64,000 nt of DNA, from NCBI GenBank assembly GCA_028704635.1, contig JAQWFB010000001.1, forward strand, positions 69,541 to 133,540, given 5' to 3'. How positions within the stretch are numbered: position 1 is the first letter of the stretch; every line of letters begins with the position of its first letter. The DNA is from Candidatus Shapirobacteria bacterium. GTDB lineage: Bacteria; Patescibacteriota; Microgenomatia; UBA12405. The translations under genes and the position numbers were made by a program. Below the pieces are notes generated by a model. It saw only the letters and a list, made by a program, of their open reading frames with translations. It made no database searches and was not told the origin of the DNA. Shown piece by piece: positions 17,292-42,223 of the stretch.

Positions 17292-17565
17292 TTTTATTTT
17301 CTACCCAATCTAAGATCTAATTTAAATGTCGAAATAAAAAATATTTTTATTTTAATTTTTTACTAAATCTAAAATCCATTTTGTGCCGAAAATAAAACAA
17401 AATCTTTAAATTTTAAAGTTTTTTTAAAATTCAAATTATTAATAATTCATTTAAGATGTGCACCATCTGGGACGATGTCGGAACCTACTTAACCTCCTCT
17501 ATTGATCCTAAAGAGAAAGCTAGTCTTATTATTGCTTTCGCTCATTTTAAAAAGGAGGGAAAGCA

Positions 17566-18066
17566 ATGAATCTGTTTAATTGGTTTGAATCTTTGACAAA
17601 ATCAAAATCCATTGAATCCCAAAGTGCCAGCTTTATTTTAACAGATGAAAATAGTTTTTATCATCGTTTTACCCAGGATTTATTCCAAGCTAAACAAGAA
17701 GTTATTATTGAAAGTCCATATATTACACTCCCAAGATTACAGAGTTTAAAACCATTTTTTGAACAATTGATAAGAAGAGGAGTAAAAATATTTATAATTA
17801 CTAAAAACCCAAAAGAACATGGTGAACAATATATGGCAGATCAATCGGAAATAGGAATCCGTTATTTTGAATCTCTTGGAGTACAAGTACTACTATGTCA
17901 AAATCATCATCGAAAACTAGCTATGATTGATAGAAAAATAATCTGGAAGGGAAGCCTAAATATTTTATCCCAACAAAATAGCCGTGAATTTATGGAACGT
18001 GAAGAAAATAAAGAAAAAATAAACGTATTGTTTAAATTTCTACAGTATGACAAAATTATTTTTTAA
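17566..18066 (+). CDS. PLD-family nuclease (Nuc-like, single HKD domain)
   Basis: HxKx4D in HHRKLAMID, followed by GSLN (GSxN). 166 aa. Confidence 0.6.
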   Translation: MNLFNWFESLTKSKSIESQSASFILTDENSFYHRFTQDLFQAKQEVIIESPYITLPRLQSLKPFFEQLIRRGVKIFIITKNPKEHGEQYMADQSEIGIRYFESLGVQVLLCQNHHRKLAMIDRKIIWKGSLNILSQQNSREFMEREENKEKINVLFKFLQYDKIIF

Positions 18067-18096
18067 AAAAGACTGATATAATCCAAGAAAGAAGAT

Positions 18097-18330: not shown

Positions 18331-18338
18331 AATATCCT

Positions 18339-18971
18339 TCATTTACCAGTTTGTGTTTTATCTAAAAATTTTCTCGGATTAACCGGTATTCCAAAAACAT
18401 TAATTTGAAAGTGTAGGTGTGGTCCAGTTGACCAACCAGTACTTCCCATTTTTCCAATTACATCTCCAATCTTAACTGTCTGTCCTTTATAAACCAATAT
18501 TTTATCTAAATGACCATATAACGAAGTCACGTTATTACCATGATCAATAATTATATGTTTTCCATAACCTATAGCCGTTTGTCCGGCATAAGTTACCACT
18601 CCATCCATAAAAGGTGTAATCTCATCGCCAATTTTTCCCACTGGATTAGCAATATCAATTCCGGTATGAGAAATCTGGTAAGGAAGGTCTGATTTGGCAA
18701 ATTCCAAAGTAATAACACCTTTTACAGGCCAAACCATTGACGAGTTTATAGTTGTTATTACTTTTCCGCTAGTAGGATCGTGAATTTCTACTGTATTAGT
18801 AGTTTCATTTAATGAAACTAATTTATCAGAAATAATATTAATTCCTGTTTGAGTTAAGATAATAACGGCAATTACCGGTAATAATAAAATTAAAAGAAAT
18901 GCAGAAATGACTATCTTTAATTCTTTTCGGTAAGACCATAAAGTAAAAATGGTTCCTATGGGAAGTGCCAT
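18339..18971 (-). CDS. M23 family metallopeptidase (LytM-like) with N-terminal TM anchor
   Basis: HTGIDI ... GHLDKILVYKGQTVKIGDVIGKMGSTGWSTGPHLHFQ. Confidence 0.85.
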   Translation of the reverse strand: MALPIGTIFTLWSYRKELKIVISAFLLILLLPVIAVIILTQTGINIISDKLVSLNETTNTVEIHDPTSGKVITTINSSMVWPVKGVITLEFAKSDLPYQISHTGIDIANPVGKIGDEITPFMDGVVTYAGQTAIGYGKHIIIDHGNNVTSLYGHLDKILVYKGQTVKIGDVIGKMGSTGWSTGPHLHFQINVFGIPVNPRKFLDKTQTGK

Positions 18972-18973
18972 AA

Positions 18974-28282: not shown

Positions 28283-28614
28283 TTAGTTGAACTTTGCCAA
28301 GCTGTTAAGAGTCTTCCAATCTCATTAATCAATTCCATAAAATGAGTATATCTTTTAACCGACAACATATTTATATCCTTTGACAATCTAACCTGGATTC
28401 TAAAAACATCCAAAAGTGTTGAAATTTGTTTTTGTTCTTCTTTTCGGTCATTTTTTGAATTAGCCACAATGGTTAATCGCAACATTTCCAAATTCGATTC
28501 CAATAATTTATTAGAAATCAAAAACCGTTGGCTTTTAGGAAATTTAGACACCACCATATTAGTGTAAAGATATAAGTCATACAATTTTTGAAAAATAATC
28601 AGGTGATCAGTCAT
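28267..28614 (-). CDS. avd: DGR accessory variability determinant (Avd)-like four-helix-bundle protein
   Basis: 115 aa. FPKSQRFLISNKLLESNLEMLRLTIVAN matches the Avd / 23S-rRNA-IVS family pattern FPKxE+FxLxxQ...N. Immediately downstream of the VR-bearing target. Confidence 0.65.
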   Translation of the reverse strand: MTDHLIIFQKLYDLYLYTNMVVSKFPKSQRFLISNKLLESNLEMLRLTIVANSKNDRKEEQKQISTLLDVFRIQVRLSKDINMLSVKRYTHFMELINEIGRLLTAWQSSTKVQAA

Positions 28615-28730
28615 AATTAAAATTTTATTAAAGATTTATTAAAAATTTATTAAATATTGTTATGGTTTTAAATCGCTTACCAGATCCCCAGATTTTTAGA
28701 TAAAAAAAAAGGAAAGATAGCTACGCTAAA

Positions 28731-28858
28731 TTACTGCAGAGGGGCCACGCAACGGAAACCAATGTTGTAGCCCGAGTTGCCGGGCGCATTGCTCAGAGAG
28801 AGGGTCCAGACACCGGCATTAGAACCGCTGCTCCAATACCCACCCCGTAGAAAAGCGT
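28731..28858 (-). repeat. DGR variable repeat (VR) at the 3' end of the target gene
   Basis: Encodes YAFLRGGYWSSGSNAGVWTLSLSNAPGNSGYNIGFRCVAPLQ*. Differs from TR only where TR has A. The 3' ~45 nt are identical to TR (IMH-like GC-rich end). Confidence 0.9.
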
Positions 28859-31103
28859 AAACGGTGCTGTCAGCATCAGCCACATCACTATAAGTATAAA
28901 TTCTTCCTACTCCCTGATTAGCATTCCAGGACGGGTTAGACGGCCTAATCGCATCATATCCTACCGAACTTCCTTGACCATTGTTAACCAAAATTCTTGT
29001 TGTTGAACCACTGGCAAAATCAGTCCAACCAAAACCCACATCCGGAGTTCCCGAAGTGGCCGAATCCGGTTCATCTTTCCTCAAAACCGTATTATCTGTC
29101 CATTCCCAAACATTACCCGCCATATCCCAAATAGTTTCTCCATTAGAAAGAGTCAAAGTTCGTTTTTGAGTTCCACCCGATCCACACGCAGTATTAACAT
29201 CTTTCGTCACCGTACCATAACAACCCTGGGAATCATCAGTTGATGCCTGAAGGGCAAAAGCCGGACCATTATCATTATGTCCAGAAGCCACAATCTTACC
29301 GCTTTGGCCAGGAGTAAAACCACAACTACCACCGTTGGAATCACACCAGTTACTGCCCATTTTTTCTAAATTACGGGCAATCGTCATGTACTCATTATTA
29401 GTTATCAAATGCCAACCCCGATCAGAACAAAGGCTTTTAGCATCAATTGCTGAACCATTATCTTGTGTCACATTAGCAATCGGATATCCCGCCGCCGATG
29501 ATACTATTTGCCTTCCGCCAGTATTACAGGGATATGAACTATTTGGCCAAGTATTATAACCTGTATCTTGAGTAATATTTCCCACTCCATCGCTGTTATC
29601 ATCACACTTAGCATTATATTTCATTACACAAAAATCACTGGTTCCATATAAAGGATCTCCTGGCACATGAATAAAACCAGTCGGACAAACCCTCTGGGCA
29701 TTACTAGCTTGAAGCGAATAATTTTTTCCCAAAGTTATCGCTCCACCAGAAAAATCAGCCGCTACTTCAAATAAAGTCCTATTGTATGGGTAAATCATCA
29801 CTTCATCAATTTTGCCATTAAAATAATTTGGGGTCGTTCCCGCCTTACCCACTAAAACCGCTCCTGGTGTTACCGACCACAAAGCCAAAGCTGGTGAAGA
29901 AATTAACCTAGCATTTTTGTAAAAATAAGCATTAGTTCCATCATAAGATACTGCCACGTGTGTCCAAGTATTAGCCTGAATCCCAGCTCCACTACTTGTC
30001 ACTGTTGTTCCACCTAAACTACCAAAATTTAACTCGCCACCACTAGTCAATTGAAAAGTATAGCCGCCAGTATTTGGCTGAGAAATAATGGCATAATTCC
30101 CCAAAGATGTCACATAAATCCAAGCTGATAACGTAATTGATCCACCCAATTGAAATTTAGAGTTACTGCCCAAATCCACATACTGACTATTGGCACTGGT
30201 TAATTGCAAACCATAATTTCTCACCCCAGTAATCCACTGTGCATTTCCAGAAAAATTTATCAAAGCCGCCCGAGAATAATTTGGGGCTTTATTCATTGTT
30301 TGATACCCAGAACCATCATCAAAACCTAATTTCACCACTGGTTTACCCCTTTCTTGTGAATAAGCCAGCGAACCGTCATTTCTAGCGCCAGTTGTTAATC
30401 TCACTTCATCAACGGTTCCATTTAAGAAATTACTGTAAGTTGAGGCTCCAGTTTTAGTGGTCGCCAAATAAAAATTTGAAGCCGTATCGGCCAAAGCCCC
30501 ACCCACACTAGCGGTAGTGCCTTCCCTTACCCCATTAACATAAATATAAATAGTACTCAAACTAGCATTGTAATATCCTTGCAATAAATACCATTGATTG
30601 GGCAATATTTGTGTTTGTCCCATCACTGTTTTAATATTGGCCGCCGTTCCATCCGTCGATACCTGAAACTTAGGAAAATTCCTTCCAGTCGAATCTGTTT
30701 CCACTGTTAATCTATAACTGCGAATATCCGTAGTTTCATCCCATTTTCCCAAAACTGTTTGAATCGTTCCAGAAACATTTGAAACCGCACTAAACTTCAC
30801 CCAAGCTTCAATCGAAAAACTGCCAGTTTGGGAAAACTCAGTACTATCCAGTGCCATCGCATAATTATTAATTCCATTAAATTTCAAACCCCTTCCATAT
30901 TTACCCACCCCTGTAGTCGGCAAGGAAGCACCGGTACTATAAGTAGCAATATTATTATTTCCCATTTTATCCTTAGTATTAGTACTAAGATCCGTCATAT
31001 CTTCAAAGTCATATTGAACCACCGGAGTATCCCAAACAGCATATTGCGCCGCCGCCTGTCGAAAAGAAAAAAGCCATAATAATAAAGCTATTAACAAACA
31101 CAT
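28731..31103 (-). CDS. DGR target: secreted protein with two LamG/ConA-like domains and a C-terminal C-type-lectin (FGE-sulfatase) fold variable domain
   Basis: Signal peptide MCLLIALLLWLFSFRQAAAQ. Two ..G(T/K)VDEV(R/M)L.. LamG-type segments. C-terminal RGGYW...GFRC signature of DGR variable proteins. Confidence 0.85.
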   Translation of the reverse strand: MCLLIALLLWLFSFRQAAAQYAVWDTPVVQYDFEDMTDLSTNTKDKMGNNNIATYSTGASLPTTGVGKYGRGLKFNGINNYAMALDSTEFSQTGSFSIEAWVKFSAVSNVSGTIQTVLGKWDETTDIRSYRLTVETDSTGRNFPKFQVSTDGTAANIKTVMGQTQILPNQWYLLQGYYNASLSTIYIYVNGVREGTTASVGGALADTASNFYLATTKTGASTYSNFLNGTVDEVRLTTGARNDGSLAYSQERGKPVVKLGFDDGSGYQTMNKAPNYSRAALINFSGNAQWITGVRNYGLQLTSANSQYVDLGSNSKFQLGGSITLSAWIYVTSLGNYAIISQPNTGGYTFQLTSGGELNFGSLGGTTVTSSGAGIQANTWTHVAVSYDGTNAYFYKNARLISSPALALWSVTPGAVLVGKAGTTPNYFNGKIDEVMIYPYNRTLFEVAADFSGGAITLGKNYSLQASNAQRVCPTGFIHVPGDPLYGTSDFCVMKYNAKCDDNSDGVGNITQDTGYNTWPNSSYPCNTGGRQIVSSAAGYPIANVTQDNGSAIDAKSLCSDRGWHLITNNEYMTIARNLEKMGSNWCDSNGGSCGFTPGQSGKIVASGHNDNGPAFALQASTDDSQGCYGTVTKDVNTACGSGGTQKRTLTLSNGETIWDMAGNVWEWTDNTVLRKDEPDSATSGTPDVGFGWTDFASGSTTRILVNNGQGSSVGYDAIRPSNPSWNANQGVGRIYTYSDVADADSTVYAFLRGGYWSSGSNAGVWTLSLSNAPGNSGYNIGFRCVAPLQ

Positions 31104-31240: not shown

Positions 31241-32254
31241 ATGAATAGAAACTCATTGAACCAAATAATTAAGGACAGAATATTTGCCTCAAACGGAAAA
31301 ATATTTCAGGAATTAATTTGGAAAATTTTAATAAAAGTCTATCCAGATTTACAAACCCCTAAAATGCAACACGATCTTGGAAATGATGGCTATTCTACTA
31401 AAGAAAAAACATTTTTTGCTTGTTATGCGATCGAAGGAAATAAATACGACAACACCGAAACCATAAACAAAATTAACGACGATTATGATAAATTTGTAGA
31501 TAATTGGAAAAATAGAGGTTCTTTTAATAAATGGGTGTTTATAACAAAAGATGATTTAATGGGAATACCACATCAAACTATTGTAAACTTAAATTCAAAT
31601 AATGATGGTATTCTTAAAGAACTTTGGGGATTACCTCAGTTATTAGATAACTGCAATAATATTTCCGATAAAGACATACGAGTAATTTTCAACATTGAAG
31701 AAGATCCTAAATATATCTGTAACGGCGGAAATCAATTTAATCAACAAACGGACGGAAGTATTACTAATATATTTCAAAATTCAGAAAAACAAACTGACTT
31801 AGAAAGAACAATAATCGAAGAAATTTTTGAAAATGTTTTAAGTAAATTGAGTCCCTCCACATTACAAGAAAAAGTCTCAGACAAAAAACATTTAAATATA
31901 ACCAGTAAAATAGCATTAAATTTTGTCGATGAAGCAGACAGAGAAGATGTTGGACAATATTTTTCGTATGCCTTGACTAAAATTGATGAGATAGAGAGGA
32001 GAATTCAATTAGAGGATTCCGAAACTCAAAAAGATATCGAATCATATATCTACGGTCTTTACAAGCAATTTACTAGAAAAAATATTAGTAATATTGAAAT
32101 ATTAGAGTCATTATTTAGGGAAATAATTCCTCCAAACAAATCTCACGACCCCAAATATGTGAATCTATCAAGAGCATTCGTTCTGCTATTTTTTGATGAT
32201 TGTACAATCTTTAAAAAGACAAAGGAGGAAATAAAAAATGCTGTTACCAACTAA
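31241..32254 (+). CDS. hypothetical protein, candidate effector component of a Lamassu/ABC-3C-like system
   Basis: First gene of a tightly overlapping three-gene operon. N-terminal ~130 aa carries a possible nuclease-like core (HDLGNDGY...CYAIEGNK). Confidence 0.35.
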   Translation: MNRNSLNQIIKDRIFASNGKIFQELIWKILIKVYPDLQTPKMQHDLGNDGYSTKEKTFFACYAIEGNKYDNTETINKINDDYDKFVDNWKNRGSFNKWVFITKDDLMGIPHQTIVNLNSNNDGILKELWGLPQLLDNCNNISDKDIRVIFNIEEDPKYICNGGNQFNQQTDGSITNIFQNSEKQTDLERTIIEEIFENVLSKLSPSTLQEKVSDKKHLNITSKIALNFVDEADREDVGQYFSYALTKIDEIERRIQLEDSETQKDIESYIYGLYKQFTRKNISNIEILESLFREIIPPNKSHDPKYVNLSRAFVLLFFDDCTIFKKTKEEIKNAVTN

Positions 32255-32468
32255 ACATGAAATTTTAAAAAATAACGAGTTGGTTATCGGGGCAAAAATA
32301 ATTAATTTGTTATCAAAAAAGACATCAGTTAATATTACTGACTTATTTGAAGAAACTGTAAAGATAGACTCAATATCTCTTAATCAATTTTATGATACAT
32401 TAACGTTTTTATGGTTAGCTGATATTGTTATATTAGAGAAATTCAAAGTTCAACTTTTAAAACGATAA
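32238..32468 (+). CDS. small helical protein, candidate middle component (LmuC-like)
   Basis: 76 aa. Overlaps the upstream gene by 17 nt and ends 1 nt before the ATPase gene. Confidence 0.35.
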   Translation: MLLPTKHEILKNNELVIGAKIINLLSKKTSVNITDLFEETVKIDSISLNQFYDTLTFLWLADIVILEKFKVQLLKR

Positions 32469-32469
32469 T

Positions 32470-34230
32470 ATGTTTTTACAAAAATTATATTCTGAGCCTA
32501 ATGGTCTATTTAAAACAATTGAGTTTAAAGATGGAGTTAATTTTATCTTTGGAAAAAAGGAAAAGACATCCGATCCGAAAGAATCACTAAATGGGATTGG
32601 TAAATCATTAACCCTCGATTTTTTAGATTTTTGTCTACTCTCATCATTCCAAAAAAATCATTGTCCTCGACTATTTGATGCCTCTCAATATTTATTGGGA
32701 TACCAAATATGTTTAGAGTTTGAAATTGATGATTCAAACTACATCATTAAACGTAATATTGAAACTTCTAGTAAAATAATCATTGGGCCGATTGGAAAAG
32801 AAAAGGAATTATCTTTAAAAGAGGCTAAAGAATATCTTTGTGACCTAATTTTCAAAAGAAATTATGGTGGTTATTATTCAAATAGTTGGCTAAGAAAATT
32901 ATTACCGTTTTTTATAAAAATACAGAAACAAAAAAGCGACAGTTTTACCGACCCGATTAAATACATAAATGAAAGTTCCGTAGCTGAATTACTACAATAT
33001 CACTTTTTTCTATTAGATATTGACAATAAATTGTCTAAATATAATTTTGAACTTCAAAATAATATCAAACAAAAAGAACCTGCACTAAAAGAAGTAAAAA
33101 GTATTGTGGAAGACACCTATGAACTACGTGATATCTCCGAAGCTTCAAATAAGATAGATATATTGAATAAGGATATTGATAAGTTGGAAAAAGCAATTTC
33201 TAACTTTAAATTATCAGAGGAGTATTTTGACGTTGAGAATGATGCCAACGGACTTACTAAAAAAATTAAGGATATTTGGTTTAATAATTTTTCTGATAGA
33301 AAAAAGATATCCTCTTATGAGGATAGTTTTAAATTGGATACTGATATTGATACTAAAAAAATTCATAATATCTACAAACAGTTTAATGAATTACTTGCAG
33401 GTAATATCCAAAAAACCCTAGAAGAGGCGGTTCAATTTAGAATAGATTTAAGTAAATCAAGAAAAGAATTCATTCTTTCTGAGATTGATGAATTAAAAAA
33501 AATTATTACAAAAAGAGAAATAGAGGTAGAAGAGCTTGAAAACAAAAGAGCAAAACTATTTACATTTTTGTCCTCAAAAAAAGCTATTGAGGATTTATCT
33601 GAAGCATACCTTGCTTTAACTCAAAAGAAAGATTCCTCAAAGGATTTAGAGGGTAAAATAAGGCTGTATACTGATTTGTCGAAAGAATTAGCTGAACTAC
33701 GTGTTGAAGAGAAAAAAGTAGAAAAAGATTTTATTGGTTTTACAGAAGAATTCAACGGATCAATTTCAAAATTCAGAGGTATATTTTCAGATATATACAA
33801 CGCAGTCTATCCTCAAAATAAAGACGAATCTATTCTTTCGATAAAATCTGCTCCAAATACAAACGCCAAACTTGAGTTTAATATCACTTTTCCAAGTATG
33901 TACTCAAAAGGTAGAAATCAAGGAAGAACATTAATTTATGACTTAGCTATGTTGATTTATATGGAAACAAATAAAATTAGAGGACCGAGATTTCTTGTTC
34001 ATGATGGTATCTTTGATGGAATGGATAAAGCTCATTTTGTTTCTTTATATGAATACCTTGAAAATCTTAAGACACACTTAAGGTTTCAATATATTATTAC
34101 TATGAACGAAGAGGGAACACTGAACGATAACTTTGGTAATACTGATGCTGTTAGTCCGGAAAAAATTGCCATCGAAGCTATTGTACTTTTAACTCCAAAC
34201 AATAAACTATTGGGAAAAGATTTTAATTAA
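32470..34230 (+). CDS. SMC/ABC-type ATPase with long coiled-coil insert (LmuB / ABC-3C ATPase-like)
   Basis: N-terminal P-loop LNGIGKSL. ~300-aa K/E-rich coiled-coil middle. C-terminal RFLVHDGIFDGMD (Walker B/D-loop-like, with DG rather than DE). Confidence 0.55.
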   Translation: MFLQKLYSEPNGLFKTIEFKDGVNFIFGKKEKTSDPKESLNGIGKSLTLDFLDFCLLSSFQKNHCPRLFDASQYLLGYQICLEFEIDDSNYIIKRNIETSSKIIIGPIGKEKELSLKEAKEYLCDLIFKRNYGGYYSNSWLRKLLPFFIKIQKQKSDSFTDPIKYINESSVAELLQYHFFLLDIDNKLSKYNFELQNNIKQKEPALKEVKSIVEDTYELRDISEASNKIDILNKDIDKLEKAISNFKLSEEYFDVENDANGLTKKIKDIWFNNFSDRKKISSYEDSFKLDTDIDTKKIHNIYKQFNELLAGNIQKTLEEAVQFRIDLSKSRKEFILSEIDELKKIITKREIEVEELENKRAKLFTFLSSKKAIEDLSEAYLALTQKKDSSKDLEGKIRLYTDLSKELAELRVEEKKVEKDFIGFTEEFNGSISKFRGIFSDIYNAVYPQNKDESILSIKSAPNTNAKLEFNITFPSMYSKGRNQGRTLIYDLAMLIYMETNKIRGPRFLVHDGIFDGMDKAHFVSLYEYLENLKTHLRFQYIITMNEEGTLNDNFGNTDAVSPEKIAIEAIVLLTPNNKLLGKDFN

Positions 34231-34295
34231 AGATTTTAATAACAGTTTTCAATACAATCTATTTCATAAGTTGACTTTTTATTTAGTATTTTAAA

Positions 34296-34440
34296 GGGGT
34301 TGCACCCCTCATTTAACAAGGGTTTCCGTTTCACTCCAATGAACTGCTCCGCCTGCTGGCGGATTGCCCTTGTTAAATTTCACCCTGCTTTTTAAATCAC
34401 TTTTAATTTGGGCAGGCAGGTATCACTACCTACCCAAATT
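34296..34440 (+). other. multi-hairpin structured element upstream of the DUF2958 gene (candidate 5' leader RNA or ssDNA initiation/oriT-like site)
   Basis: Hairpin ggggt/acccc (34296-34310). 10-bp stem ttaacaaggg/cccttgttaa enclosing an inner ccgcc-tgct-ggcgg hairpin (34313-34376). Hairpin ttgggcagg/cctacccaa (34409-34437). SD aaggag precedes ATG 34468. Confidence 0.3.
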
Positions 34441-34467
34441 TAAAAATTATAAAAAGGAGAAAAACAA

Positions 34468-34770
34468 ATGAAATTGCTAACAGTCGAGCTTATAAACACC
34501 TTTAAAAGAGTGGGGAGACAAGAAGAAGTTAAAGATCCCTTAGTTATTGCTAAGTTTTTTAATCCCACTGGTGCTGGGACTTGGTATGCCACTGAATACG
34601 AACCAGAATCCAAAATGTTTTTTGGTTATGTCTCTATCTTTAGAGATGATAATGACGAATGGGGTTATTTTTCCCTTGAGGAATTAGAAAGTATTAGAGG
34701 CTATTTTGGCTTAGGTATTGAACGTGATCTTTATTTCACCTCAAAACCATTTAGTCAGATTAAGTATTAA
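34468..34770 (+). CDS. DUF2958-family protein (plasmid/ICE-associated)
   Basis: EEVKDPLVIAKFFNPTGAGTWYATEYEPESKMFFGYVSI...EWGYFSLEELESIRG matches the conserved DUF2958 core. Confidence 0.65.
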   Translation: MKLLTVELINTFKRVGRQEEVKDPLVIAKFFNPTGAGTWYATEYEPESKMFFGYVSIFRDDNDEWGYFSLEELESIRGYFGLGIERDLYFTSKPFSQIKY

Positions 34771-34795
34771 TTATTTATTAAATATTAATTAAAAA

Positions 34796-34987
34796 ATGAT
34801 TAGAAAATTACCAATATTCAAAGGTTATACAGTTGATTTAAGGCTTCAAGAATTTAGAAAAATAGAGGCTGATAAATTACCTGAGTTTATCCCGTTATTA
34901 AGCGATAAAGGTGCCCGTCTGTTTTGGGAATTTAAACAGACTCATGCCGGTCAAAAAGAATTAGATCACTATTTAGGCCGTAAATAA
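34796..34987 (+). CDS. hypothetical protein
   Basis: 63-aa ORF. Confidence 0.3.
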   Translation: MIRKLPIFKGYTVDLRLQEFRKIEADKLPEFIPLLSDKGARLFWEFKQTHAGQKELDHYLGRK

Positions 34988-35018
34988 TAGAAAAATAAGA
35001 AAAACACCCCAGATGAAA

Positions 35019-35789
35019 TTAATTTTTCTCTGGGGTATTTTTTTCTTCAAAAGCACTAACCCATCTATTTGATGGTTCAATGGATAGATAAAAATCAATT
35101 TCTTCTTGATCTTCTTCTTCCATAATTCTAGGGATAAAAGAATGTAAATACTTTTTAATTGAATCATTGGGGCAGAGGATTAGAATTTTTGGAAAAGGAT
35201 GTTTAGTAACTTCTTGCCAAGTGTTGGCATTGTAATATTCTAAATATTGTTTAATTTTAGCCCGGATAACAAATCTGGGTGTGTCTTCGTCAATGATTTC
35301 CAAAAAATAGCGTTTGATTTTTTTGTTTTCCTTTGTGGCAATATAAGCATCTGGGTGTTTGTCCGGCAAATAATCGTAATTTATTAAATCAATTTTAGTA
35401 TAGAAAAATATTTCTTCAGGCAGATGAGATTTTTTAAGACTTAAATAAAAATCAGCTGATAATAAACAATGGTTAATAAATTTTTGAGTTCTCTTTTTCT
35501 CTCCATAAATTCGTTTCATTAATTTGGCATCTTTTTCCAGTTGATCAATTAAATAATTTTTACTTTTGCTTTTTAAAAAATAAATTGCTGGTTTAATATT
35601 GTCACCTAATTTATTTGAGTAGTTTCTACCAATTATTTTTTTATCATTTAGATTTTTTAACCAGATATTAATCTGACTTATTTTTTTATGATTCAGTAGT
35701 TGTTGTATTTGTAATCTGTTTAAGAATCGAAATCTGTAGAGCAGTATTATTATTTCTAATTGTTTTTTAGTTATGTTGTTTTTATCCAT
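35019..35789 (-). CDS. replication-relaxation (Replic_Relax) family protein
   Basis: N-terminal wHTH-like LTKKQLEIIILLYRFRFLNRLQIQQLL, typical of the family found on Gram-positive mobile elements. Confidence 0.5.
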   Translation of the reverse strand: MDKNNITKKQLEIIILLYRFRFLNRLQIQQLLNHKKISQINIWLKNLNDKKIIGRNYSNKLGDNIKPAIYFLKSKSKNYLIDQLEKDAKLMKRIYGEKKRTQKFINHCLLSADFYLSLKKSHLPEEIFFYTKIDLINYDYLPDKHPDAYIATKENKKIKRYFLEIIDEDTPRFVIRAKIKQYLEYYNANTWQEVTKHPFPKILILCPNDSIKKYLHSFIPRIMEEEDQEEIDFYLSIEPSNRWVSAFEEKNTPEKN

Positions 35790-35926
35790 TTTATTTTTTT
35801 ATTCTAGAAACCATCAAGAGAGTTTATCTTTATTCACTCTCTTACTCTATAAGAGTAAAGAGACTAAATTTAAAATTGATTATCCCTAAATTCAGGATAA
35901 ATATTAAAAATTTTTAATGTAGCGGG

Positions 35927-38740
35927 CTACACTAAAATTTCTTTCTTTTTAATTGACTTCTTTAATGGTTTTTTAGCTGTTTTAATTTTGTTTTTAACCT
36001 TTACTTTAGTCATTTCTTTTATTTCTTTTTTGTAAGTGATGGCATAATTTTTTCTTGATATCTCAATTAATTTTTGTAGTCTTTCCGGATTTCGATCTAA
36101 AACAATCGGGATAGTTTCTCCCGAAAATGGTTCTTCTGGTTCCACGGCTGATAATTTCATGTAAAACCTGAAACGAGGTAGATTACCAATATCTCCCTTT
36201 TTCACATAAGGGCTAAATTGGTCTAACATTAACTCTTCATCAATTGGACTAGCGGTTCTAAAACAAATAATAGTCCCAGTATTAGCTAAGATAACATTGA
36301 CCATATTCCGATCTGATTGTTGGGCGGTTGATTGTTCGGCAATGGTCAATCGTAATCCAAACTTTCTTCCCCCAGATAATAATTTAGTAAATGAAGTGGT
36401 AGCAAAATTTTGAAATTCATCCACAAATAAATAGAAGGGTTTTCGATTGATTATCGGAGTTCTGACTCGTCTCATGAAGGCTTGTTGTAGTTTGGCAATA
36501 ATCGTTGTTCCTAAAAGTTGGGAAGTATCCTCACCTAGTTTTCCTTCAGCTAAATTACAAATTAAGATTTTTCCAGAAGAAATAATTTCATCAAAATTAA
36601 TAGTTGATTTTGGTTGTTCCAATATTCTTTTAGCTGTAGGGGAGAATAAGAATCGACCAATTTTAGCCGTCACTCCAGAAACCATTTTAACTGCCTGGTA
36701 ACTTCCAGCTTTCCCAAATTCGTTTAACCAAAAGTTTTTTAAATTGGCGTCTTCTAATTTTGTCGTGATACTTTTTTGATAGTTTGGATTATTAAGCAAA
36801 TCATAAACTGTAAAAATAGTGGCGTCCTTAACGGTAAAGGCAGTATAAATGGTATTCCTCAAAATGTATTCAATTCGATGGGAATCAGTATTTTCATCTT
36901 TAGAAAATATTCGTCTAAAAACTGAAATGACACTTTCACAAACTAATTCTTTTTCTTGTTCTAATTCATCATCACTAAGGCCTGATTTAAGTTCTAATAA
37001 ATTGATCCCAATTGGATGACTAATATCAAAAGGATTTAAATAAATACAATCATCAAAGCGACTTTTGGGAACAGAATATAATAAATCTTCGGCAAGATCC
37101 CCATGAGGATCAATCACCGCCACTCCTCGGCCTTTTTGAATATCATCTTTAGCCATGTGAAAGATAATGGTGGTTTTACCGGAACCAGTTTGACCAATAG
37201 CATAGACATGACGAGAACGGTCATCATCAGTTAACCCAATGTCACTAACCACATTGGCATATTTATTCTTGCCAAAGACCACATCAAAATTGGAATTGTT
37301 TTTAACTGACAGAGGTGAGGGTAGTTCGGAACTATGACTAGTCACCATTCCTTCGGTTTTGGTGGTGACATTGTAAGGAAAATGATAAAGATCACTTAAT
37401 TCTGAAATTGATAAAATTGGATTTTGATTAAGGATTGAATTTGTCGATAAAGATTTTTGTTTAAATTGTTTTATCTGATTTTTAAAATTATTAAAAATAT
37501 AATTTTTAGAGACTAATGATTGATATGGACTACTTAATTGTCCTAAGGAAGAGATTAAACCATTAATTCTGGTTTTATTTTCTTCATCTTTATGAGTGAT
37601 TACTAATAATCTGATGGAAGTTTCAAATAATGACCGGTCAATTTTATCTTTAATAATTCTAGCTAGTTCTTGTTCATAAGGATTTAAAATTTCTTTAGGA
37701 GAGGCAGATGATGTTTGAAAAATTGGCACTGATTTACCACTAGTATCAATTATGGCCGGAATAATACTGATCACAAACAAAAACAGAAGATGAACTATTT
37801 TTCCAATACCTTTAACAAAAAACCAAATAATAGATATTCCTGGTAAAGCTACTAATTTTTGTAAAGCATTTTTTTGAACAACTTCAGTTAGTGGTAATCC
37901 TTGGTATAGTCGTGTTCTTAACTCTTTAATTTCGGACATTATCCTTTGATGAAAGACATTCATGATTGGGCTAACAATTATTTGAAAAGAAATTAATTCA
38001 TCTTTTTTAAGATTAGTCATATTTCCCGTTAGATAAGAGATAGGATCATTTTCTGAAAGTGTTTTTTGAGTTTGGAGTGGTAGGGCAAAATGACTCGATA
38101 ATTTTAATTCAATCAATCTAACTGATTCAGTTGTTTGATTAATTTTATTAATATCCAGATAATCGTTAATTTCCTTAATTTTGATTCCGGGTAAATAGGA
38201 TAAAAGATTATGTTTAATAATTTCTATAAATTTTGGATCAGCTGAGAGTAAATAACGGATACCTTCATTTTTAGTGGAGACAATTTCTAATGAGTATTCA
38301 TTTTTTCTTTGAGTTATTCGATCTCTAAAACTTACCTGTCGAGATAGGGTATGGAGGAGAGTATACAATTCTTCGGTCGCATAAGCTGATTTACTAGTAT
38401 CGGCTGGAAATATTAATTGAATCATTTTCTTACCAGTTCTTTTTTGGGAAAACTGTTTAAAAATCATTGGTACTACTGTTTTAATAATTCCTAAAATTAT
38501 TTTTATTAATATAATCAGAGAAATTATCCCCAAAATTGGTCCCACTACTAAAATGATCGTCATCCACATTGGAGATAACGTTGATATTAAGGGAGTTAAC
38601 CAGTTATAGAAAGTAAGTTTCCAAGAAATAGGTAAAGGCAGTGACAGAATTAAATAGAGGGAAAAGACATGAGTATTGGATAGAGTGTGTTGTTGAATCT
38701 GATGTAATAACTGAAGTTGTTGAACATCAACTGAAGTCAT
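35927..38740 (-). CDS. VirD4/TraG/FtsK-HerA-type coupling ATPase with N-terminal TM region
   Basis: Walker A GQTGSGKTT and Walker B FYLFVDEFQNF in the C-terminal half. TM helices in the N-terminal third. 937 aa. Confidence 0.55.
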   Translation of the reverse strand: MTSVDVQQLQLLHQIQQHTLSNTHVFSLYLILSLPLPISWKLTFYNWLTPLISTLSPMWMTIILVVGPILGIISLIILIKIILGIIKTVVPMIFKQFSQKRTGKKMIQLIFPADTSKSAYATEELYTLLHTLSRQVSFRDRITQRKNEYSLEIVSTKNEGIRYLLSADPKFIEIIKHNLLSYLPGIKIKEINDYLDINKINQTTESVRLIELKLSSHFALPLQTQKTLSENDPISYLTGNMTNLKKDELISFQIIVSPIMNVFHQRIMSEIKELRTRLYQGLPLTEVVQKNALQKLVALPGISIIWFFVKGIGKIVHLLFLFVISIIPAIIDTSGKSVPIFQTSSASPKEILNPYEQELARIIKDKIDRSLFETSIRLLVITHKDEENKTRINGLISSLGQLSSPYQSLVSKNYIFNNFKNQIKQFKQKSLSTNSILNQNPILSISELSDLYHFPYNVTTKTEGMVTSHSSELPSPLSVKNNSNFDVVFGKNKYANVVSDIGLTDDDRSRHVYAIGQTGSGKTTIIFHMAKDDIQKGRGVAVIDPHGDLAEDLLYSVPKSRFDDCIYLNPFDISHPIGINLLELKSGLSDDELEQEKELVCESVISVFRRIFSKDENTDSHRIEYILRNTIYTAFTVKDATIFTVYDLLNNPNYQKSITTKLEDANLKNFWLNEFGKAGSYQAVKMVSGVTAKIGRFLFSPTAKRILEQPKSTINFDEIISSGKILICNLAEGKLGEDTSQLLGTTIIAKLQQAFMRRVRTPIINRKPFYLFVDEFQNFATTSFTKLLSGGRKFGLRLTIAEQSTAQQSDRNMVNVILANTGTIICFRTASPIDEELMLDQFSPYVKKGDIGNLPRFRFYMKLSAVEPEEPFSGETIPIVLDRNPERLQKLIEISRKNYAITYKKEIKEMTKVKVKNKIKTAKKPLKKSIKKKEILV

Positions 38741-38827
38741 TTTGAGTCTCCATTAGGTTATATAAATACTTATATATAAAAATATGACAAAGTATATCAC
38801 AAACACTAATAGGAGGTTGTTAAGGAC

Positions 38828-39049
38828 TTAAGGCAAAATCTCAGAAGATTTAATCTTCAGTGCTTTACAGATATTTTCTATTACTGAAAAAGTAGGATTT
38901 TCTTCACCCCTCTCAATACCCGCATAATAAGTAGTTGAAATCTTACTCATTTTTGCCGCTTCTTCTTGAGAGAATCCCTTTTGTTCTCTCATTTTACGGA
39001 TATTTTTACCAAATTCCTGTTGGCTTTTTTTATTTGGACTTGGAGTCAT
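38828..39049 (-). CDS. XRE-family HTH transcriptional regulator
   Basis: FSQEEAAKMSKISTTYYAGIERGEENPTFSVIENICKAL helix-turn-helix. Confidence 0.85.
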   Translation of the reverse strand: MTPSPNKKSQQEFGKNIRKMREQKGFSQEEAAKMSKISTTYYAGIERGEENPTFSVIENICKALKIKSSEILP

Positions 39050-39105
39050 ATTTTTAGTATAACACTAGGCTATTTTCAGAGTATTGTACTAAAATATTAT
39101 GAATA

Positions 39106-39194
39106 ACAACTATAGTTATATTTTAGCTTCATATTTTACTATATTTACCGCTTGACAGCTATAACCACAGTTGTTATTCTATAACTATAGTTGT
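39106..39194. promoter_or_regulatory. divergent promoter/operator region with repeated dyad CAACTATAGTT(A/G)
   Basis: caactatagtta at 39107-39118 and taactatagttg at 39182-39193, both near-perfect 12-bp palindromes. A related dyad ataaccacagttgttat at 39161-39177. TTGACA at 39152-39157. Confidence 0.5.
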
Positions 39195-39212
39195 AGTTAA
39201 AAAGAGTAAACC

Positions 39213-39422
39213 ATGATAAGTAAAGAGTATCTTGATAAGTTTAAAAAGTTATATAAAGACAAATACAATATAACTCTTTCAGATGAAGAAACAACCGAAT
39301 TAGCAACACATTTTATAAACTTAATGGAAATTCTTATTAAACCAAAATCAAAAACAGAAAACCAAATTAATAATCAGACTTGTATATCAGAAAGGAGACA
39401 ATATGCGACTGGCAGAATATAA
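39213..39422 (+). CDS. hypothetical protein (possible excisionase/RDF position)
   Basis: 69-aa ORF immediately upstream of, and overlapping, the serine recombinase start. Confidence 0.3.
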   Translation: MISKEYLDKFKKLYKDKYNITLSDEETTELATHFINLMEILIKPKSKTENQINNQTCISERRQYATGRI

Positions 39423-41124
39423 CACTAAAAATATAAGCGAGCTTCCAAACACACCACATTACATGATGTATTGCCGAAAAAGCAGCGAATCTGATGAACG
39501 ACAAATTCAGTCTCTACCAGATCAAGTAACTAACTTGACTGATTTTATTCATCAACGAGGAGTTGAATTAGTCGGAGAACCTCTACAGGAACAAAGAACC
39601 GCCAAAATTCCAGGCAGGCCGATTTTCAATCGTCTTGTTCAAATGATTGAGGACAGAGAAATAAACGGAATCGTCCTTCTTAACCCTTCCCGATTATCAA
39701 GAAATACTGTCGACACTGGACGCATCATTTATTTAATGGATCAAGGAAAACTCCTTGAGGTTATAACTCCTTATCAAACCTTTCGGAATAATCCCAATGA
39801 TAAATTTATGCTCAATTTGCTTTGTACTCAAGCAAAACTTGAAAATGATAATAAAAGTGTCAATATTACCGAGGCCTTAAAACTCAAAGCTGAAAGGGGA
39901 GTATTCCCGGGTCGAGCTAGACCGGGATATAAAAATAATCACGAAAAACCTCAAGGACTCCGAGATATCTCCGCTCACCCTGTTTATTTTCCCTTAATGA
40001 GAAAACTTTTTGATCTTGCTTTAACTGGTAATTACAGCGTCCAATCACTAATTAGAGAAGCAAAAATTTTAGGAATCAGAAGTTTAAAATCCGGTAAACC
40101 GATTGTAAAAAGTTGGATGTATAGACTTCTTCGTGACCCCTTTTATACAGGGAGATTTATGTACAACGGAAAACTCTATCAAGGACAACACCCTGCAATG
40201 ATTACTGATGCCGAATTTAATCTGCTGCAAGATATCTTGGATGGGAAGTCAAAAGCGAGACTACAAAAACATGATTTTGCTCTCAATGGAATTATAGAAT
40301 GTGGCGAATGTCACTATTGCATTACTGCTCAAGAACACACCAAAAAATATAAAAATGGCACACAGCAAACTTTTGGATATTATTGTTGTACTAAGAAAGG
40401 TGAAACGAAATGTAGCCAACGCTACACCGCAACCAGTAAACTTGAAGGTCAATTTTTAGACGACTTAGGTCAGTTTAAAATTATGGATCAGGAATTTATA
40501 GATTGGGCTTATGAAGCTTTGGATGAAACGAAGGATAAGAATCAGAAGGTTAATAAAAATAGTTCTGAAGCTCTTCAAATCGCTTTAGATGGAGTTAATA
40601 GAAGAATTGATAATCTTATCGCTCTTAAGATATCACCAGAAAACGACGGCAGCTTACTTTCAAACGCAGAGTTTTCTGACAGGAAACGCGGACTTATGAT
40701 AGAAAAAGAAACAATTCTTCAACAACTCGCACAATGTAATTCTAACGGATCAGATTGGACAAATGTCGCCCGCGATGCGTTTGATTTTGCATTACTAGCC
40801 CAAGAACGCTTTGAACACGGCGATTCACAAGATAAAAAAGTGATTTTCAAAGCCATCGGCGTGAACCCGATCTTACTAGATCAAGAATTACAATATCAGC
40901 CTCGATTTATCTTTTTGAAGATAAAAGAGGGTATTAAGAAAACCAATGACAAAAATAGTCGGCTTGAACCTCAAAAAACCCCATCAGATCAGGCTAATTT
41001 AGAAAATTACCTAAAAAGTTCTGTATGGTGCCGCAGAGAGGAGTTGAACCTCCATGGGTTTCCCCACACGGTCCTAAGCCGTGCTTGTATACCAATTTCA
41101 ACACTGCGGCAAGTTTTTAATTAA
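39403..41124 (+). CDS. large serine recombinase (phiC31-type integrase)
   Basis: Catalytic block YCRKSSESDERQ (YxRxSS/T..Q), recombinase domain, zinc-ribbon cysteines CGECHYC...CC, coiled-coil C-terminus. 573 aa. The last ~85 nt overlap tRNA-Leu(TAG) on the opposite strand. Confidence 0.9.
   Translation: MRLAEYNTKNISELPNTPHYMMYCRKSSESDERQIQSLPDQVTNLTDFIHQRGVELVGEPLQEQRTAKIPGRPIFNRLVQMIEDREINGIVLLNPSRLSRNTVDTGRIIYLMDQGKLLEVITPYQTFRNNPNDKFMLNLLCTQAKLENDNKSVNITEALKLKAERGVFPGRARPGYKNNHEKPQGLRDISAHPVYFPLMRKLFDLALTGNYSVQSLIREAKILGIRSLKSGKPIVKSWMYRLLRDPFYTGRFMYNGKLYQGQHPAMITDAEFNLLQDILDGKSKARLQKHDFALNGIIECGECHYCITAQEHTKKYKNGTQQTFGYYCCTKKGETKCSQRYTATSKLEGQFLDDLGQFKIMDQEFIDWAYEALDETKDKNQKVNKNSSEALQIALDGVNRRIDNLIALKISPENDGSLLSNAEFSDRKRGLMIEKETILQQLAQCNSNGSDWTNVARDAFDFALLAQERFEHGDSQDKKVIFKAIGVNPILLDQELQYQPRFIFLKIKEGIKKTNDKNSRLEPQKTPSDQANLENYLKSSVWCRREELNLHGFPHTVLSRACIPISTLRQVFN
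41039..41120 (-). tRNA. tRNA-Leu (anticodon TAG)
   Basis: Manual fold: GCCGCAG acceptor, anticodon stem CACGG/CCGTG, loop CTTAGGA, long variable arm. Confidence 0.8.
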
Positions 41125-41136
41125 TGTGGGTCCGGC

Positions 41137-41209
41137 GGGACTCGAACCCGCGACCAATCGCTTAAGAGGCGACCGCTCTACCAACTGAGCTACAAACCCA
41201 AAAGACTGT
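41137..41209 (-). tRNA. tRNA-Lys (anticodon CTT)
   Basis: Manual fold: GGGTTTG/CGGACCC acceptor (two G-U pairs), anticodon loop CTCTTAA, T-arm GCGGG/CCCGC. Confidence 0.75.
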
Positions 41210-41218
41210 GATATTTTA

Positions 41219-41803
41219 TCATTTTTGTTTATTTTTTACCGTTTCCATTTCCGCAATCTCGCTATCGGTTATTTTTTTAAATTTTATTATTTCATCAAGA
41301 TAAAAAAGTAGATCACCAAATTCTGATAAAAATTGTTTTCTAGTTCTCACCAACACCAGATTGTTTCCATTTTCTTTAACTTTTTTTAATAATTCTTTTT
41401 CAAAATCAACATCAACTAGTCTTTCAAAACTAAATTTAATACCCTTATTCTTAATCCTCTTAAAAAAACCATCCGTGATTAAAGTCTCTAAACTAACTCT
41501 TTTTCCTTCACCAGGACCATCATCATCATTTGCCCAATGTAAAAAAATTCTCTCATTAAATCCACCTTTTTTCATTATATTAACTTCTTCAATTTCCTCC
41601 AATTCTTCATCTGTTATTTTTTCAGATTCTATTATTTCATCAACCACAAATAATAGGTTGCCAAACTGCGACAAAAATTCTTCTTTGTTTTTTGAAACCC
41701 CTAAACTTTTCCCTTTTTCTCTAACTACACCAAACAATTCTCTTTTAACAAATACTTCATTTAAATTTTTTGGATTTAAAACCCTATTAACTTCTCTTTC
41801 CAT
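41219..41803 (-). CDS. hypothetical acidic protein with two internal repeats (possible MazG-like helical NTP-PPase repeats)
   Basis: Repeated blocks EEFLSQFGNLLFVVDEIIESEKITDEELEEIEE and KQFLSEFGDLLFYLDEIIKFKKITDSEIAEME. The gene is paralogous to its downstream neighbour. Confidence 0.35.
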   Translation of the reverse strand: MEREVNRVLNPKNLNEVFVKRELFGVVREKGKSLGVSKNKEEFLSQFGNLLFVVDEIIESEKITDEELEEIEEVNIMKKGGFNERIFLHWANDDDGPGEGKRVSLETLITDGFFKRIKNKGIKFSFERLVDVDFEKELLKKVKENGNNLVLVRTRKQFLSEFGDLLFYLDEIIKFKKITDSEIAEMETVKNKQK

Positions 41804-41848: not shown

Positions 41849-42223
41849 TTATTTTTTAAGCTCATCATCTTTTTTTTCATTAGTCCGATAACCATCATCA
41901 GATGTCCAGTGTAAGTATAATCGCTTTTTAAAACCGCCTTTCCTTGCAAAATTTTCTTTTCTAACCTCTTCAAGTTCTTTATCTGTAATATTCTTAAATC
42001 TTTTAATTTCTTCAACAACATACAGTAAATCATCAAATTCAGATAAAAATTCCTCTCTAGTTTCTGCTGCAATTAAACCTTCTCCTTCTTCGGAAACTTT
42101 CTTCAACAATTCCTTTTCAAAATCAATCTCATCTAATTTTTCTATCCTAAATACTAATCCTTTATTAATTAATTTATCACGAACATTATCTCGAATTAAC
42201 CTATTAAAATGTAATTTTTCCAT
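41849..42223 (-). CDS. hypothetical acidic protein, single-repeat paralog of the adjacent gene
   Basis: REEFLSEFDDLLYVVEEIKRFKNITDKELEEVR and FKKRLYLHWTSDDGY align with both repeats of the neighbouring protein. Confidence 0.35.
   Translation of the reverse strand: MEKLHFNRLIRDNVRDKLINKGLVFRIEKLDEIDFEKELLKKVSEEGEGLIAAETREEFLSEFDDLLYVVEEIKRFKNITDKELEEVRKENFARKGGFKKRLYLHWTSDDGYRTNEKKDDELKK

Follow-up and report, generated by a model that had tools for sequence, protein, structure and literature searches.

Positions 17458 to 41031 of the window, the whole 64,000-nucleotide stretch analyzed here from Candidatus Shapirobacteria bacterium (NCBI GenBank assembly GCA_028704635.1, contig JAQWFB010000001.1, positions 69,541 to 133,540), very probably form a single integrative and conjugative element (ICE) of 23.57 kb in a Patescibacteria/candidate phyla radiation (CPR) chromosome, inserted at the final nucleotides of a tRNA-Leu(TAG) gene by the element's large serine recombinase (LSR). 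The original prediction had drawn a smaller integrative element at 34250-41209. That region is real but under-called: the 7 kb flagged make up the right-hand third of the candidate ICE (23.6 kb; 23,570 bp), where integration and DNA processing are encoded. This reading is carried by mapped boundaries, an architecture found throughout the LSR family, coding constraint on a detached piece of the LSR gene, and the gene content.

Element boundaries

Two copies of a 4-bp core, GTGC, delimit the element, and the right-hand copy lies at the end of the target tRNA gene (P and P' denote the half-sites of attP, B and B' those of attB; coordinates are those of the window).

17458..17461, + strand: attL core GTGC; host B arm ...TTCATTTAAGAT, then GTGC, then P' arm ACCATCTGGGACGATGTCGGAACC
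41028..41031, + strand: attR core GTGC; ...AAAAAGTTCTGTATG, then GTGC, then B' arm CGCAGAGAGGAGTTGAACC, which is the tRNA acceptor and T arm
41026..41110, - strand: tRNA-Leu(TAG), the target (ARAGORN 41026-41110; Rfam body 41029-41110)

Written out, attL reads ...TTCATTTAAGAT-GTGC-ACCATCTGGGACG... and attR ...GTTCTGTATG-GTGC-CGCAGAGAGGAG... The left end was located in the intergenic DNA past 17291, which holds GTGCACCATCTGGGACGATGTCGGAACC at 17458. In locus L022 (comparison loci and contigs carry L numbers) the sequence directly after the LSR (...TTTATG) is this same P' sequence, whose signature is GTGCACCATMTGGGAC. A contig from the Joint Genome Institute (JGI), L180, is 95.3% identical to window positions 17457-20692; the match breaks off no more than 1 nt from attL, and to the left of that point L180 carries unrelated DNA. 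The left end of the element is consequently at 17458 and not at 34250, a coordinate that coincides with no element boundary. Outside attL, the host genes at 14766-15869 and 15894-17291 are syntenic with L001, where a tRNA-Lys gene comes directly after the second gene. Protein comparison of the window with all loci placed homologues of the VirB4/pilin genes (18974-23474) directly left of DUF2958 in L011, L016 and L018.

L180 and the three findings that follow are four independent lines of support for the left boundary. A second complete element, of 17.96 kb, was obtained from a Gottesmanbacteria metagenome-assembled genome (MAG), in which L208 overlaps L011 at 100% identity; its attL is AATAAT-GTGC-ACCATCTGGG and its attR, in tRNA-Leu(gag), is CTGTATT-GTGC-GGGTGAGAGG. 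L085 has an identical P' and core, but at a non-tRNA site. An exact-pattern scan of JGI metagenomes for P' returned at least 129 sites on more than 120 contigs, nearly all of them with unrelated left flanks; among the matches listed, several lie beside neighboring tRNAs and a few fall by chance in unrelated genes. The order P'-PLD-o77-(variable cargo)-M23-VirB4-o206-PrgI-VirB6-pilin is kept in at least 15 metagenome contigs. Defined attL and attR sites flank the whole unit, as expected of an ICE. The attP site would be P-GTGC-P' (60-mer AAAAAGTTCTGTATGGTGCACCATCTGGGACGATGTCGGAACC), and the reconstructed attB, ...AAGAT-GTGC-CGCAGAG... (60-mer TAATAATTCATTTAAGATGTGCCGCAGAGAGGAGTTGAACC), resembles unoccupied tRNA-Leu sites. 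A search for boundary repeats, proposed with the smaller element, yielded the short core at both ends but, anywhere in the window, neither a direct repeat of the tRNA-Leu 3' part nor the P arm in inverted form. Short matches to the tRNA 3' part or P arm at 25290-25304 and 34800-34812 were taken as chance.

Several contigs show unusual P' arrangements. Two to three P' copies lie 0.6-2 kb apart in L108 (8375, 9012 and 10223), L102, L107, L131, L165, L198 and L206, which suggests arrays of attL-type remnants left by repeated insertion and decay at one site. The sequence TATATCA(G/A)(T/C)CTATTCG... occurs about 45 nt left of the core in L108, L117, L128, L136, L145, L147, L197 and L200; in L145 and L200 it comes after a different LSR, only 28% identical. 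These sites may reflect a second recombinase family using the same P' site, or tandem elements. On the reverse strand of L105, at about 5190-5300, the conserved non-coding block otherwise seen upstream of DUF2958 (...CCCTTGCAATCCTCACCCCGCTT) runs straight into a P arm of 15 nt, followed by the core and P'; this 'mini-attP' without the DUF2958-to-LSR genes could be a deletion derivative or an element mobilizable in trans.

Target tRNA and half-sites

Anchorage of an integrative element at tRNA-Leu(TAG), with the LSR lying over the tRNA antisense, is supported, and attR maps to 41028-41031. The antisense overlap stands, and the tRNA coordinates first proposed (41039-41120) are about 10 nt off. 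The next gene is tRNA-Lys(ctt) (41126-41199, - strand; ARAGORN). Occupied and unoccupied tRNA-Leu genes were compared in the window, in L001 and then in all loci. Occupied genes end in ...GGCACCA and continue into TACAGAACTTTTT, in which the final native codons of the LSR appear antisense, whereas unoccupied genes mostly end in ...GGCAC followed by A/T-rich DNA, and the encoded CCA is missing in 10 of 16. This comparison places the exchange point in or beside antisense GTGC and makes the CCA element-supplied; in the window, the encoded CCA of the target (41026-41028) comes from the P arm. Insertion would leave tRNA-Leu intact and add the encoded CCA. The core GTGC is the antisense of ...GCAC, which comprises tRNA positions 71-73 and the initial C of CCA, and a shared core as short as 4 bp fits the expectation for a serine integrase. 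Relatives that target tRNA-Glu and tRNA-Arg have the core GTAC.

The B arm holds almost no sequence information (91 unique flanks among the matches listed), and B', the tRNA acceptor/T arm, is the sole conserved attB half-site. The GC of the core is the symmetry center of P and P', which follow the pattern ACCAT-NNN-G-R-AC. GGAC occurs at the same distance, 9-12 nt from the core, in both P' and B'; the T-arm-like TTCGAACC in P' sits 4-5 nt further out than TTGAACC in B'. In the Rutherford/Van Duyne model, the outer motif of large serine integrases is reportedly shifted outward in attP relative to attB half-sites, and such a shift explains the T-arm-like look of P'.

The recombinase and its family

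The LSR gene is read in two parts in the integrated state.

39403..41031, + strand: LSR native part, codons 1-543, ending ...KSSVWC; the last ~25 nt are the P half-site
41032..41124, + strand: LSR read-through tail in the integrated state, 30 codons, on the antisense strand of the tRNA and spacer

The whole open reading frame (ORF), 39403-41124, encodes 573 aa and runs antisense through the entire tRNA-Leu(TAG) to a TAA stop at 41122-41124. Pfam matches cover the Resolvase (4.4e-16, residues 22-167), Recombinase (1.8e-10) and Zn_ribbon_recom (1.5e-5) domains. Across 40 homologues Y23, R25 and S27, which include the resolvase R-x-S nucleophile motif, are invariant, as are the zinc-ribbon cysteines C300, C303, C329 and C337. 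Long helices span residues 365-447 in an AlphaFold2 model of the L022-form protein (moderate confidence). More than 1100 homologues were found at E <= 1e-10, most of them 60-88% identical, under the names Microgenomates, Woykebacteria, Roizmanbacteria and Saccharimonadales, and the family has more than 570 matching genome stretches. Exact-protein look-ups for the window LSR and the right-flank protein gave no match, and a scan of IMG/VR for the LSR family gave no relatives.

Nearly all homologues reach ...LKSS(V/L)WC and then diverge, for example into (R/G)RE(D/E)LNLH or ESNP. What is read there is a tRNA acceptor and T arm translated from the antisense strand; the read-through tail varies with the target tRNA and its stop position is variable. 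In a survey of 80 genome loci fetched with the LSR family alignment, the LSR 3' end lay over an antisense tRNA in 22 loci (LSR at least 57% identical), 23 with the window; the targets were Leu-tag, Leu-gag, Leu-cag, Leu-taa, Glu-ctc, Glu-ttc and Arg-tcg. Some more distant LSRs, at 31-36% identity, lie over or directly beside a tRNA gene (Glu, Ser, His or Gln). The gene order DUF2958-orf63-Replic_Relax-ATPase-XRE-orf69-LSR was conserved throughout the family loci. The overlap between LSR and antisense tRNA is a family-wide property and not chance.

Two observations concern the database records themselves. Many homologues end exactly at ...WC(G/R), and the L021 contig ends at the LSR/tRNA junction; this suggests that contigs break at that junction, and a break at attR is what strain heterogeneity or repeated tRNAs might produce. 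Several third-party annotation (TPA) MAG records among L006-L010, L015, L016, L028 and L030 carry a typical CPR element with CPR-style tRNA clusters, and the label 'uncultured Gammaproteobacteria/Pseudomonadales' on several of them is probably wrong.

A detached recombinase tail

The native 3' end of the LSR gene was found at the far end of the element.

17459..17569, + strand: detached LSR 3' end, encoding C-TIWDDVGTYLTSSIDPKEKASLIIAFAHFKKEGKQ-stop; the stop overlaps the ATG of the next gene

Its first ~26 nt double as the P' half-site, and P' keeps the LSR frame: WC is followed by TIWDDV(R/G)TYLTSSIDPKEKxxLIxAxxHFKKExKQ and a stop. The native tail has 35 codons (TIWDDV…KKEGKQ), and 69 of the 110 unique copies among the matches listed have their stop at codon 37-38. 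Entropy at codon positions 1, 2 and 3, computed outside the bases fixed by the search pattern, was 0.68, 0.39 and 1.04 (51 unique copies of one length among the matches listed). Synonymous to nonsynonymous codon differences stood at 9423:12435 in the LSR frame, compared with 3694:18077 and 1407:20371 in the other frames. This pattern shows the signature of coding constraint, that is, of purifying selection, on the tail. Both LSR parts form one continuous 579-aa ORF in L022, and in L092 a C-terminal LSR fragment is joined to the tail.

We propose that attP lies within the LSR gene and that integration would cut the ORF after codon 543 (...W-C); in the chromosomal copy the reading frame then runs into the antisense tRNA, which adds 30 arbitrary codons. 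The native 35-codon tail would move 23.5 kb away to the left end, before the PLD-nuclease and T4SS (type IV secretion system) genes, and excision would rejoin both parts into a protein of 543 + 35 = 578 aa, compared with 543 + 30 in the integrated form. An attP inside the recombinase gene accounts for the LSR/tRNA overlap and gives the integrated and the excised element different forms of the LSR protein. A word-index search for the tail and a full scan of 1.84 billion cluster representatives gave only orphan ORFs of 37-117 aa; such scans say little on the frequency of the excised form, because full-length LSRs would cluster with integrated forms.

More tentatively, and with the odds against the two parts holding together, the tail swap could serve as a state sensor or directionality switch while much of the T4SS of Patescibacteria is ICE-borne with MOBC-type relaxases. 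Under such a switch the complete 578-aa integrase, with its flexible linker and terminal amphipathic helix, would be encoded by the excised circle alone; the tail-less enzyme of the integrated copy would differ, for example by being excision-competent or freed of auto-inhibition. The swapped tail would then, we infer, have a role in which recombination within the integrase's own gene partly sets its direction, and not only a separate directionality factor.

A 75-aa protein, P0125, from an NCBI Levybacteria MAG (2,678-bp contig) has DUF2958 residues 1-39 (...NPCGAGTW) fused in frame to CTIWDDV...; this implies deletion or recombination between a TGG-T site in the DUF2958 gene and P'.

Transfer genes, candidate relaxase and candidate oriT

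Between attL and attR the left part of the element carries mating-pore genes and the right part the DNA-processing genes.

17566..18066, + strand: PLD-family (Nuc-like) nuclease, first left-end gene (Pfam PLDc_2 4.8e-10)
18339..18971, - strand: M23 peptidase, candidate cell-wall hydrolase of the transfer apparatus (Pfam Peptidase_M23 1e-30)
18974..21329, - strand: VirB4-like ATPase in two ORFs, 20709-21329 (N-terminal) and 18974-20716 (ATPase) (NCBIfam conju_CD1110)
21301-21813, - strand: PrgI/VirB3-like protein (Pfam PrgI 9e-6, 26.6 bits, just below the gathering cut-off of 27)
21810-23123, - strand: VirB6/TrbL-like protein with pilin domain (TrbL_4 4e-4, 20.2 bits, under the cut-off of 27; T4SS_pilin)
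23130-23474, - strand: TrbC/VirB2-type pilin (Pfam)
34294..34440, + strand: structured non-coding block, candidate origin of transfer (oriT) or operator, conserved upstream of DUF2958 in at least 15 loci
34468-34770, + strand: DUF2958 protein (Pfam 1e-19)
34796-34987, + strand: conserved 63-aa ORF (orf63), conserved in the family gene order
35019..35789, - strand: Replic_Relax protein, N-terminal winged helix-turn-helix plus PD-(D/E)XK-type domain, candidate MOBC-class relaxase (Pfam 2.1e-11)
35927..38740, - strand: type IV coupling protein, 937 aa, N-terminal transmembrane segments, Walker A GQTGSGKT
38828-39049, - strand: XRE repressor (HTH_3)
39213-39422, + strand: conserved 69-aa ORF (orf69), divergent from XRE, overlapping the LSR start, candidate directionality factor

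The PLD nuclease gene comes after P' in dozens of metagenome contigs and is followed by a 77-aa ORF, and the position of the M23 peptidase beside VirB4 is conserved. The VirB4 match, as expected for an ICE, reaches 370.5 bits to conju_CD1110 (cut-off 325). Its 206-aa ORF covers profile positions 11-178 and its 580-aa ORF the ATPase part, and the two overlap; L208 is split likewise (205 + 594 aa), so the split is a conserved feature rather than a frameshift introduced by sequencing. The accessory proteins of the mating pore (VirB3/PrgI, VirB6-like and hydrolase) are likewise present. The coupling protein matches TrwB_AAD_bind, DUF87 and TraG-D_C above the Pfam cut-offs, which identifies it as a type IV coupling protein, with sub-cutoff NCBIfam matches to SXT_TraD and the VirD4-like CD1115; its homologues also match DUF8128. 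XRE and orf69 are syntenic in every family member. Pfam and PHROGs gave no match for orf69, orf63, orf77 or orf181. The backbone first predicted here (DUF2958, Replic_Relax, the 937-aa ATPase, XRE with a divergent ORF, and LSR) is all present, with Pfam support.

Three further claims of the original prediction fell. It had described a mobilizable element without pore genes or relaxase, and both the T4SS (18339-23474) and Replic_Relax lie inside attL-attR. The VirB4/pilin cluster at 18-23 kb, taken then as an external helper, lies between the same two sites. The statement that no relaxase is present is untenable because of the family class of Replic_Relax, its PHROG nicking match and its conserved residues: the family (PF13814) belongs to the MOBC relaxase superfamily (PMC5357655, Table 1, Coluzzi et al.) and is a PD-(D/E)XK fold nuclease (PMC3424549, Steczkiewicz et al.), the window protein scores 44.7 bits (cut-off 25.3) and matches the PHROG 'replication initiation by nicking' at 3e-9, and E97, P146 and D147 are conserved in 21 homologues. 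The protein at 35019-35789 is a candidate MOBC-class relaxase.

The non-coding block at 34294-34440 has a GC hairpin with a T-run, a long stem CAAGGG...CCCTTG, a TTCACCC(Y)GCT motif and a perfect inverted repeat; it folds into three helices with compensatory changes in 12 of 19 predicted pairs, and Rfam holds no family for it. The start of conservation upstream of DUF2958, at 34294, was also considered as the left end of the element, with att arms read into its first hairpin, and rejected: base pairs within that hairpin covary, and the same block is found again inside longer elements. By their gene content, these loci appear to make up a monoderm-type conjugation set, including two VirB2-like pilins, a candidate relaxase and a structured candidate oriT; the latter two would presumably pair as nicking protein and nicked site.

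Mobility and alternative readings

Several indirect observations point to mobility: the unrelated flank of L180, the different tRNA targets of close relatives and the apparent selection on the tail. We infer that the element may still excise and transfer. A number of points weigh against the ICE reading or parts of it. The reconstructed same-species empty attB was absent from all fetched loci, and no circular-junction reads were found. Among the ~130 P' matches listed, an intact P-core-P' junction occurs only in L022, in a rearranged chromosomal context, and L092 and L105 hold two further, partial junctions. The symmetry center of attP is GC, a palindromic dinucleotide, although TG and GT are also possible within GTGC. 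A palindromic central dinucleotide would be unusual for an LSR, since a non-palindromic one sets polarity. The AlphaFold2 model of the L022 protein (P0109) renders the tail as a disordered linker plus terminal helix, with values below 60 in the tail and a mean predicted local distance difference test (pLDDT) score of 66. The relaxase call comes from family-level hidden Markov model matches and its PD-(D/E)XK motif is only partly visible, and the oriT is an unproven candidate. A survey of T4SS in ~2,400 Patescibacteria assemblies (PMC12102498, Microb Genom 2025) found them chromosomal and mostly without detected relaxases, and argues that they were co-opted for non-conjugation functions; its text makes no mention of integrases, recombinases or tRNA.

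That survey, which reports the T4SS as essential for epibiotic growth in Saccharimonadia, favors the best surviving alternative, a fixed domesticated island whose T4SS serves host interaction and whose LSR and att sites are immobile relics. Such an island would also fit the finding that nearly all junctions among the matches listed are integrated ones, and its vertical inheritance predicts what is seen in L088 and L133, related hosts with a related element near the same host genes. We nevertheless consider it unlikely. The LSR is intact and highly conserved; the detached tail, which would form protein only after excision, appears to be under purifying selection; the 95%-identical copy in L180 has a different flank; LSRs at 80-88% identity occupy different tRNA-Leu isoacceptors; and cargo differs between element copies.

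A further rival reading concerns the segment at 17459-17569. It is very unlikely that this is an independent small gene or a leader of the PLD/T4SS operon, with the LSR ending at any stop past ...WC. The host arm does give an in-frame ATG (MCTIWDD...) in the window and several copies, gene callers predict 37-117-aa orphan ORFs at the tail, and the tail stop overlaps the PLD start codon. The upstream flanks at the attL copies, however, are unrelated and often lack a start or are closed by an in-frame stop, which speaks against an independent gene; the segment is always in frame with LSR ...TGG TGC, and the continuous ORF of L022 and the joined fragment of L092 point to a single gene. The least probable reading, already contradicted, is a ~7-kb integrative mobilizable element (34250-41209), relaxase-less and borrowing an external T4SS: the DUF2958-to-LSR backbone is a compact conserved module of 6.5-7 kb, the conserved non-coding block starts at 34294 and small T4SS-less variants exist (e.g. 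L085, ~5.6 kb), but no att half-site lies near 34.25 kb, P' being at 17458, the 34294 block has covarying hairpins and recurs inside longer elements, the T4SS lies between attL and attR here and in L208+L011, and Replic_Relax falls in the MOBC relaxase class (PMC5357655).

Cargo genes and right flank

The remaining genes inside the ICE include a diversity-generating retroelement (DGR), with its template repeat (TR) and variable repeat (VR), and a candidate defense operon.

24029-24700, + strand: YceG/MltG-like protein (Pfam YceG 1e-56), inside the element by position
24703-25248, - strand: 181-aa ORF (orf181), inside the element by position
25828..31103: DGR with embedded Fic gene, cargo (Pfam and TR/VR alignment)
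25828-25955: DGR TR (TR/VR alignment)
26110-27006: DGR reverse transcriptase (RT), within the DGR cargo
27224-28252: Fic (SoFic-like), within the DGR cargo
28267-28614, - strand: DGR Avd, within the DGR cargo
28731-31103, - strand: DGR target gene, 790-aa Laminin_G_3/FGE-sulfatase fold; VR 28731-28858 is its last 128 nt
31241..34230, + strand: three-gene ABC-3C/PDC-M68-type candidate defense operon (Pfam MC6, DUF2326)

An island spanning 25.3-41.2 kb had been suggested; membership of the DGR, Fic and defense genes is upheld, and the left end moves from 25.3 kb to attL at 17458. Over 128 nt, TR and VR share 91% identity, and each of the 11 mismatches is at a TR adenine, a pattern by which the DGR looks active. 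L008 and L031 also have a DGR beside the same backbone. 'Lamassu-like', the earlier name for the operon, is loose: the best match is PADLOC PDC-M68B (2.5e-74) with Pfam ABC-3C MC6, and LmuB reaches only 1.6e-5. L104 has a homologous ABC3C_A/DUF2326 pair as cargo, flanked by the 77-aa ORF on one side and the M23 peptidase gene on the other.

Outside attR, between the tRNA-Lys and tRNA-Arg genes, two paralogous ORFs (41219-41803 and 41849-42223, - strand; 194 and 124 aa) match no family and share a repeated ...FLSEFGDLLFxxDEII... motif. At L001 11032-11106, roughly at the position of the window's tRNA-Arg(tct), ARAGORN called a tRNA with anticodon CTA ('Pyl'), which could be a suppressor-type tRNA or a miscall.

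Implications

Set against the most recent survey, which takes it to be chromosomal and probably non-conjugative (PMC12102498), the T4SS of Patescibacteria gains a mapped att-bounded mobile context together with a candidate relaxase and oriT, and CPR conjugation becomes directly testable; if the T4SS were largely ICE-borne, conjugation would be a major route of CPR gene flow. A large conserved LSR family targets tRNA 3' ends without destroying them, a logic formerly tied to tyrosine integrases, and one attB half-site alone appears to be specified. The state difference created by an attP inside the ORF may bear on directionality control and integrase engineering. The cargo also shows a reduced genome hosting an ICE-borne DGR, with A-specific TR/VR differences, and defense genes.

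Comparison with known systems

Site-specific serine-recombinase elements typically insert inside genes and disrupt them, and tyrosine-recombinase elements use tRNA 3' ends (PMC5704250; PMC4383910). The Durrant et al. LSR catalogue does not mention tRNA, and the searchable literature, which leaves out subscription journals, gave no earlier account of tRNA-targeting LSR families, attP-spanning LSR ORFs or CPR ICEs. The closest known machinery is that of serine-recombinase ICEs and conjugative transposons in Firmicutes. With these monoderm elements (Tn5397/TndX, and the Clostridioides conjugative transposons (CTn) with their CD1110-type VirB4 and CD1115-type coupling protein) the element has in common a single, terminally placed large serine recombinase, identical cores that are very short, and MPF_FATA-type transfer genes (CD1110-type VirB4, PrgI-like, VirB6-like, hydrolase and VirD4-like). 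It differs from Tn5397/CTn in its Patescibacteria host, its MOBC/Replic_Relax candidate relaxase, a recombinase ORF that spans attP, and a target that is a tRNA gene 3' terminus, left intact. With the T4SS clusters of PMC12102498 it shares the phylum, a VirB4 nested in MPF_FATA, VirB2-like pilins, PrgI, a VirB6-like protein and the coupling protein; unlike them, its cluster is bounded by mapped attL and attR sites and accompanied by an LSR and a MOBC-class protein.

Like Islander/P4-type tRNA islands (PMC4383910), the element is inserted at a tRNA 3' end and has its integrase gene directly adjacent to the tRNA, which insertion regenerates. Unlike those islands, it uses a serine and not a tyrosine recombinase, shares a core of 4 bp and not a repeat of tens of bp, and leaves no displaced tRNA fragment at the far end, adding only CCA. 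It is not a tyrosine-integrase island: the recombinase is of the serine type and the window holds no tRNA-Leu 3' repeat.

In mycobacteriophage BPs, which shows integration-dependent immunity, attP lies inside a coding sequence and the recombinase is a tyrosine recombinase. SSV-type archaeal 'suicidal' tyrosine integrases have their attachment site inside the integrase ORF (PMC7253208). As in SSV and BPs, attP is in coding sequence and the integrated and excised states encode different proteins; unlike SSV, where the gene is split into two inactive halves, only the last 35 of 578 codons would be swapped here and the catalytic and DNA-binding domains stay intact. The LSR shares with the canonical phage integrases Bxb1, phiC31, A118 and SPbeta the Resolvase-Recombinase-zinc ribbon-coiled coil order, short att sites and an outer motif 4-5 bp further out in attP than in attB. 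It departs from Bxb1, phiC31, A118 and SPbeta, whose attP lies outside the int ORF, in an attP inside the ORF, a B arm without detectable conservation and an apparent symmetry center at the palindromic GC.

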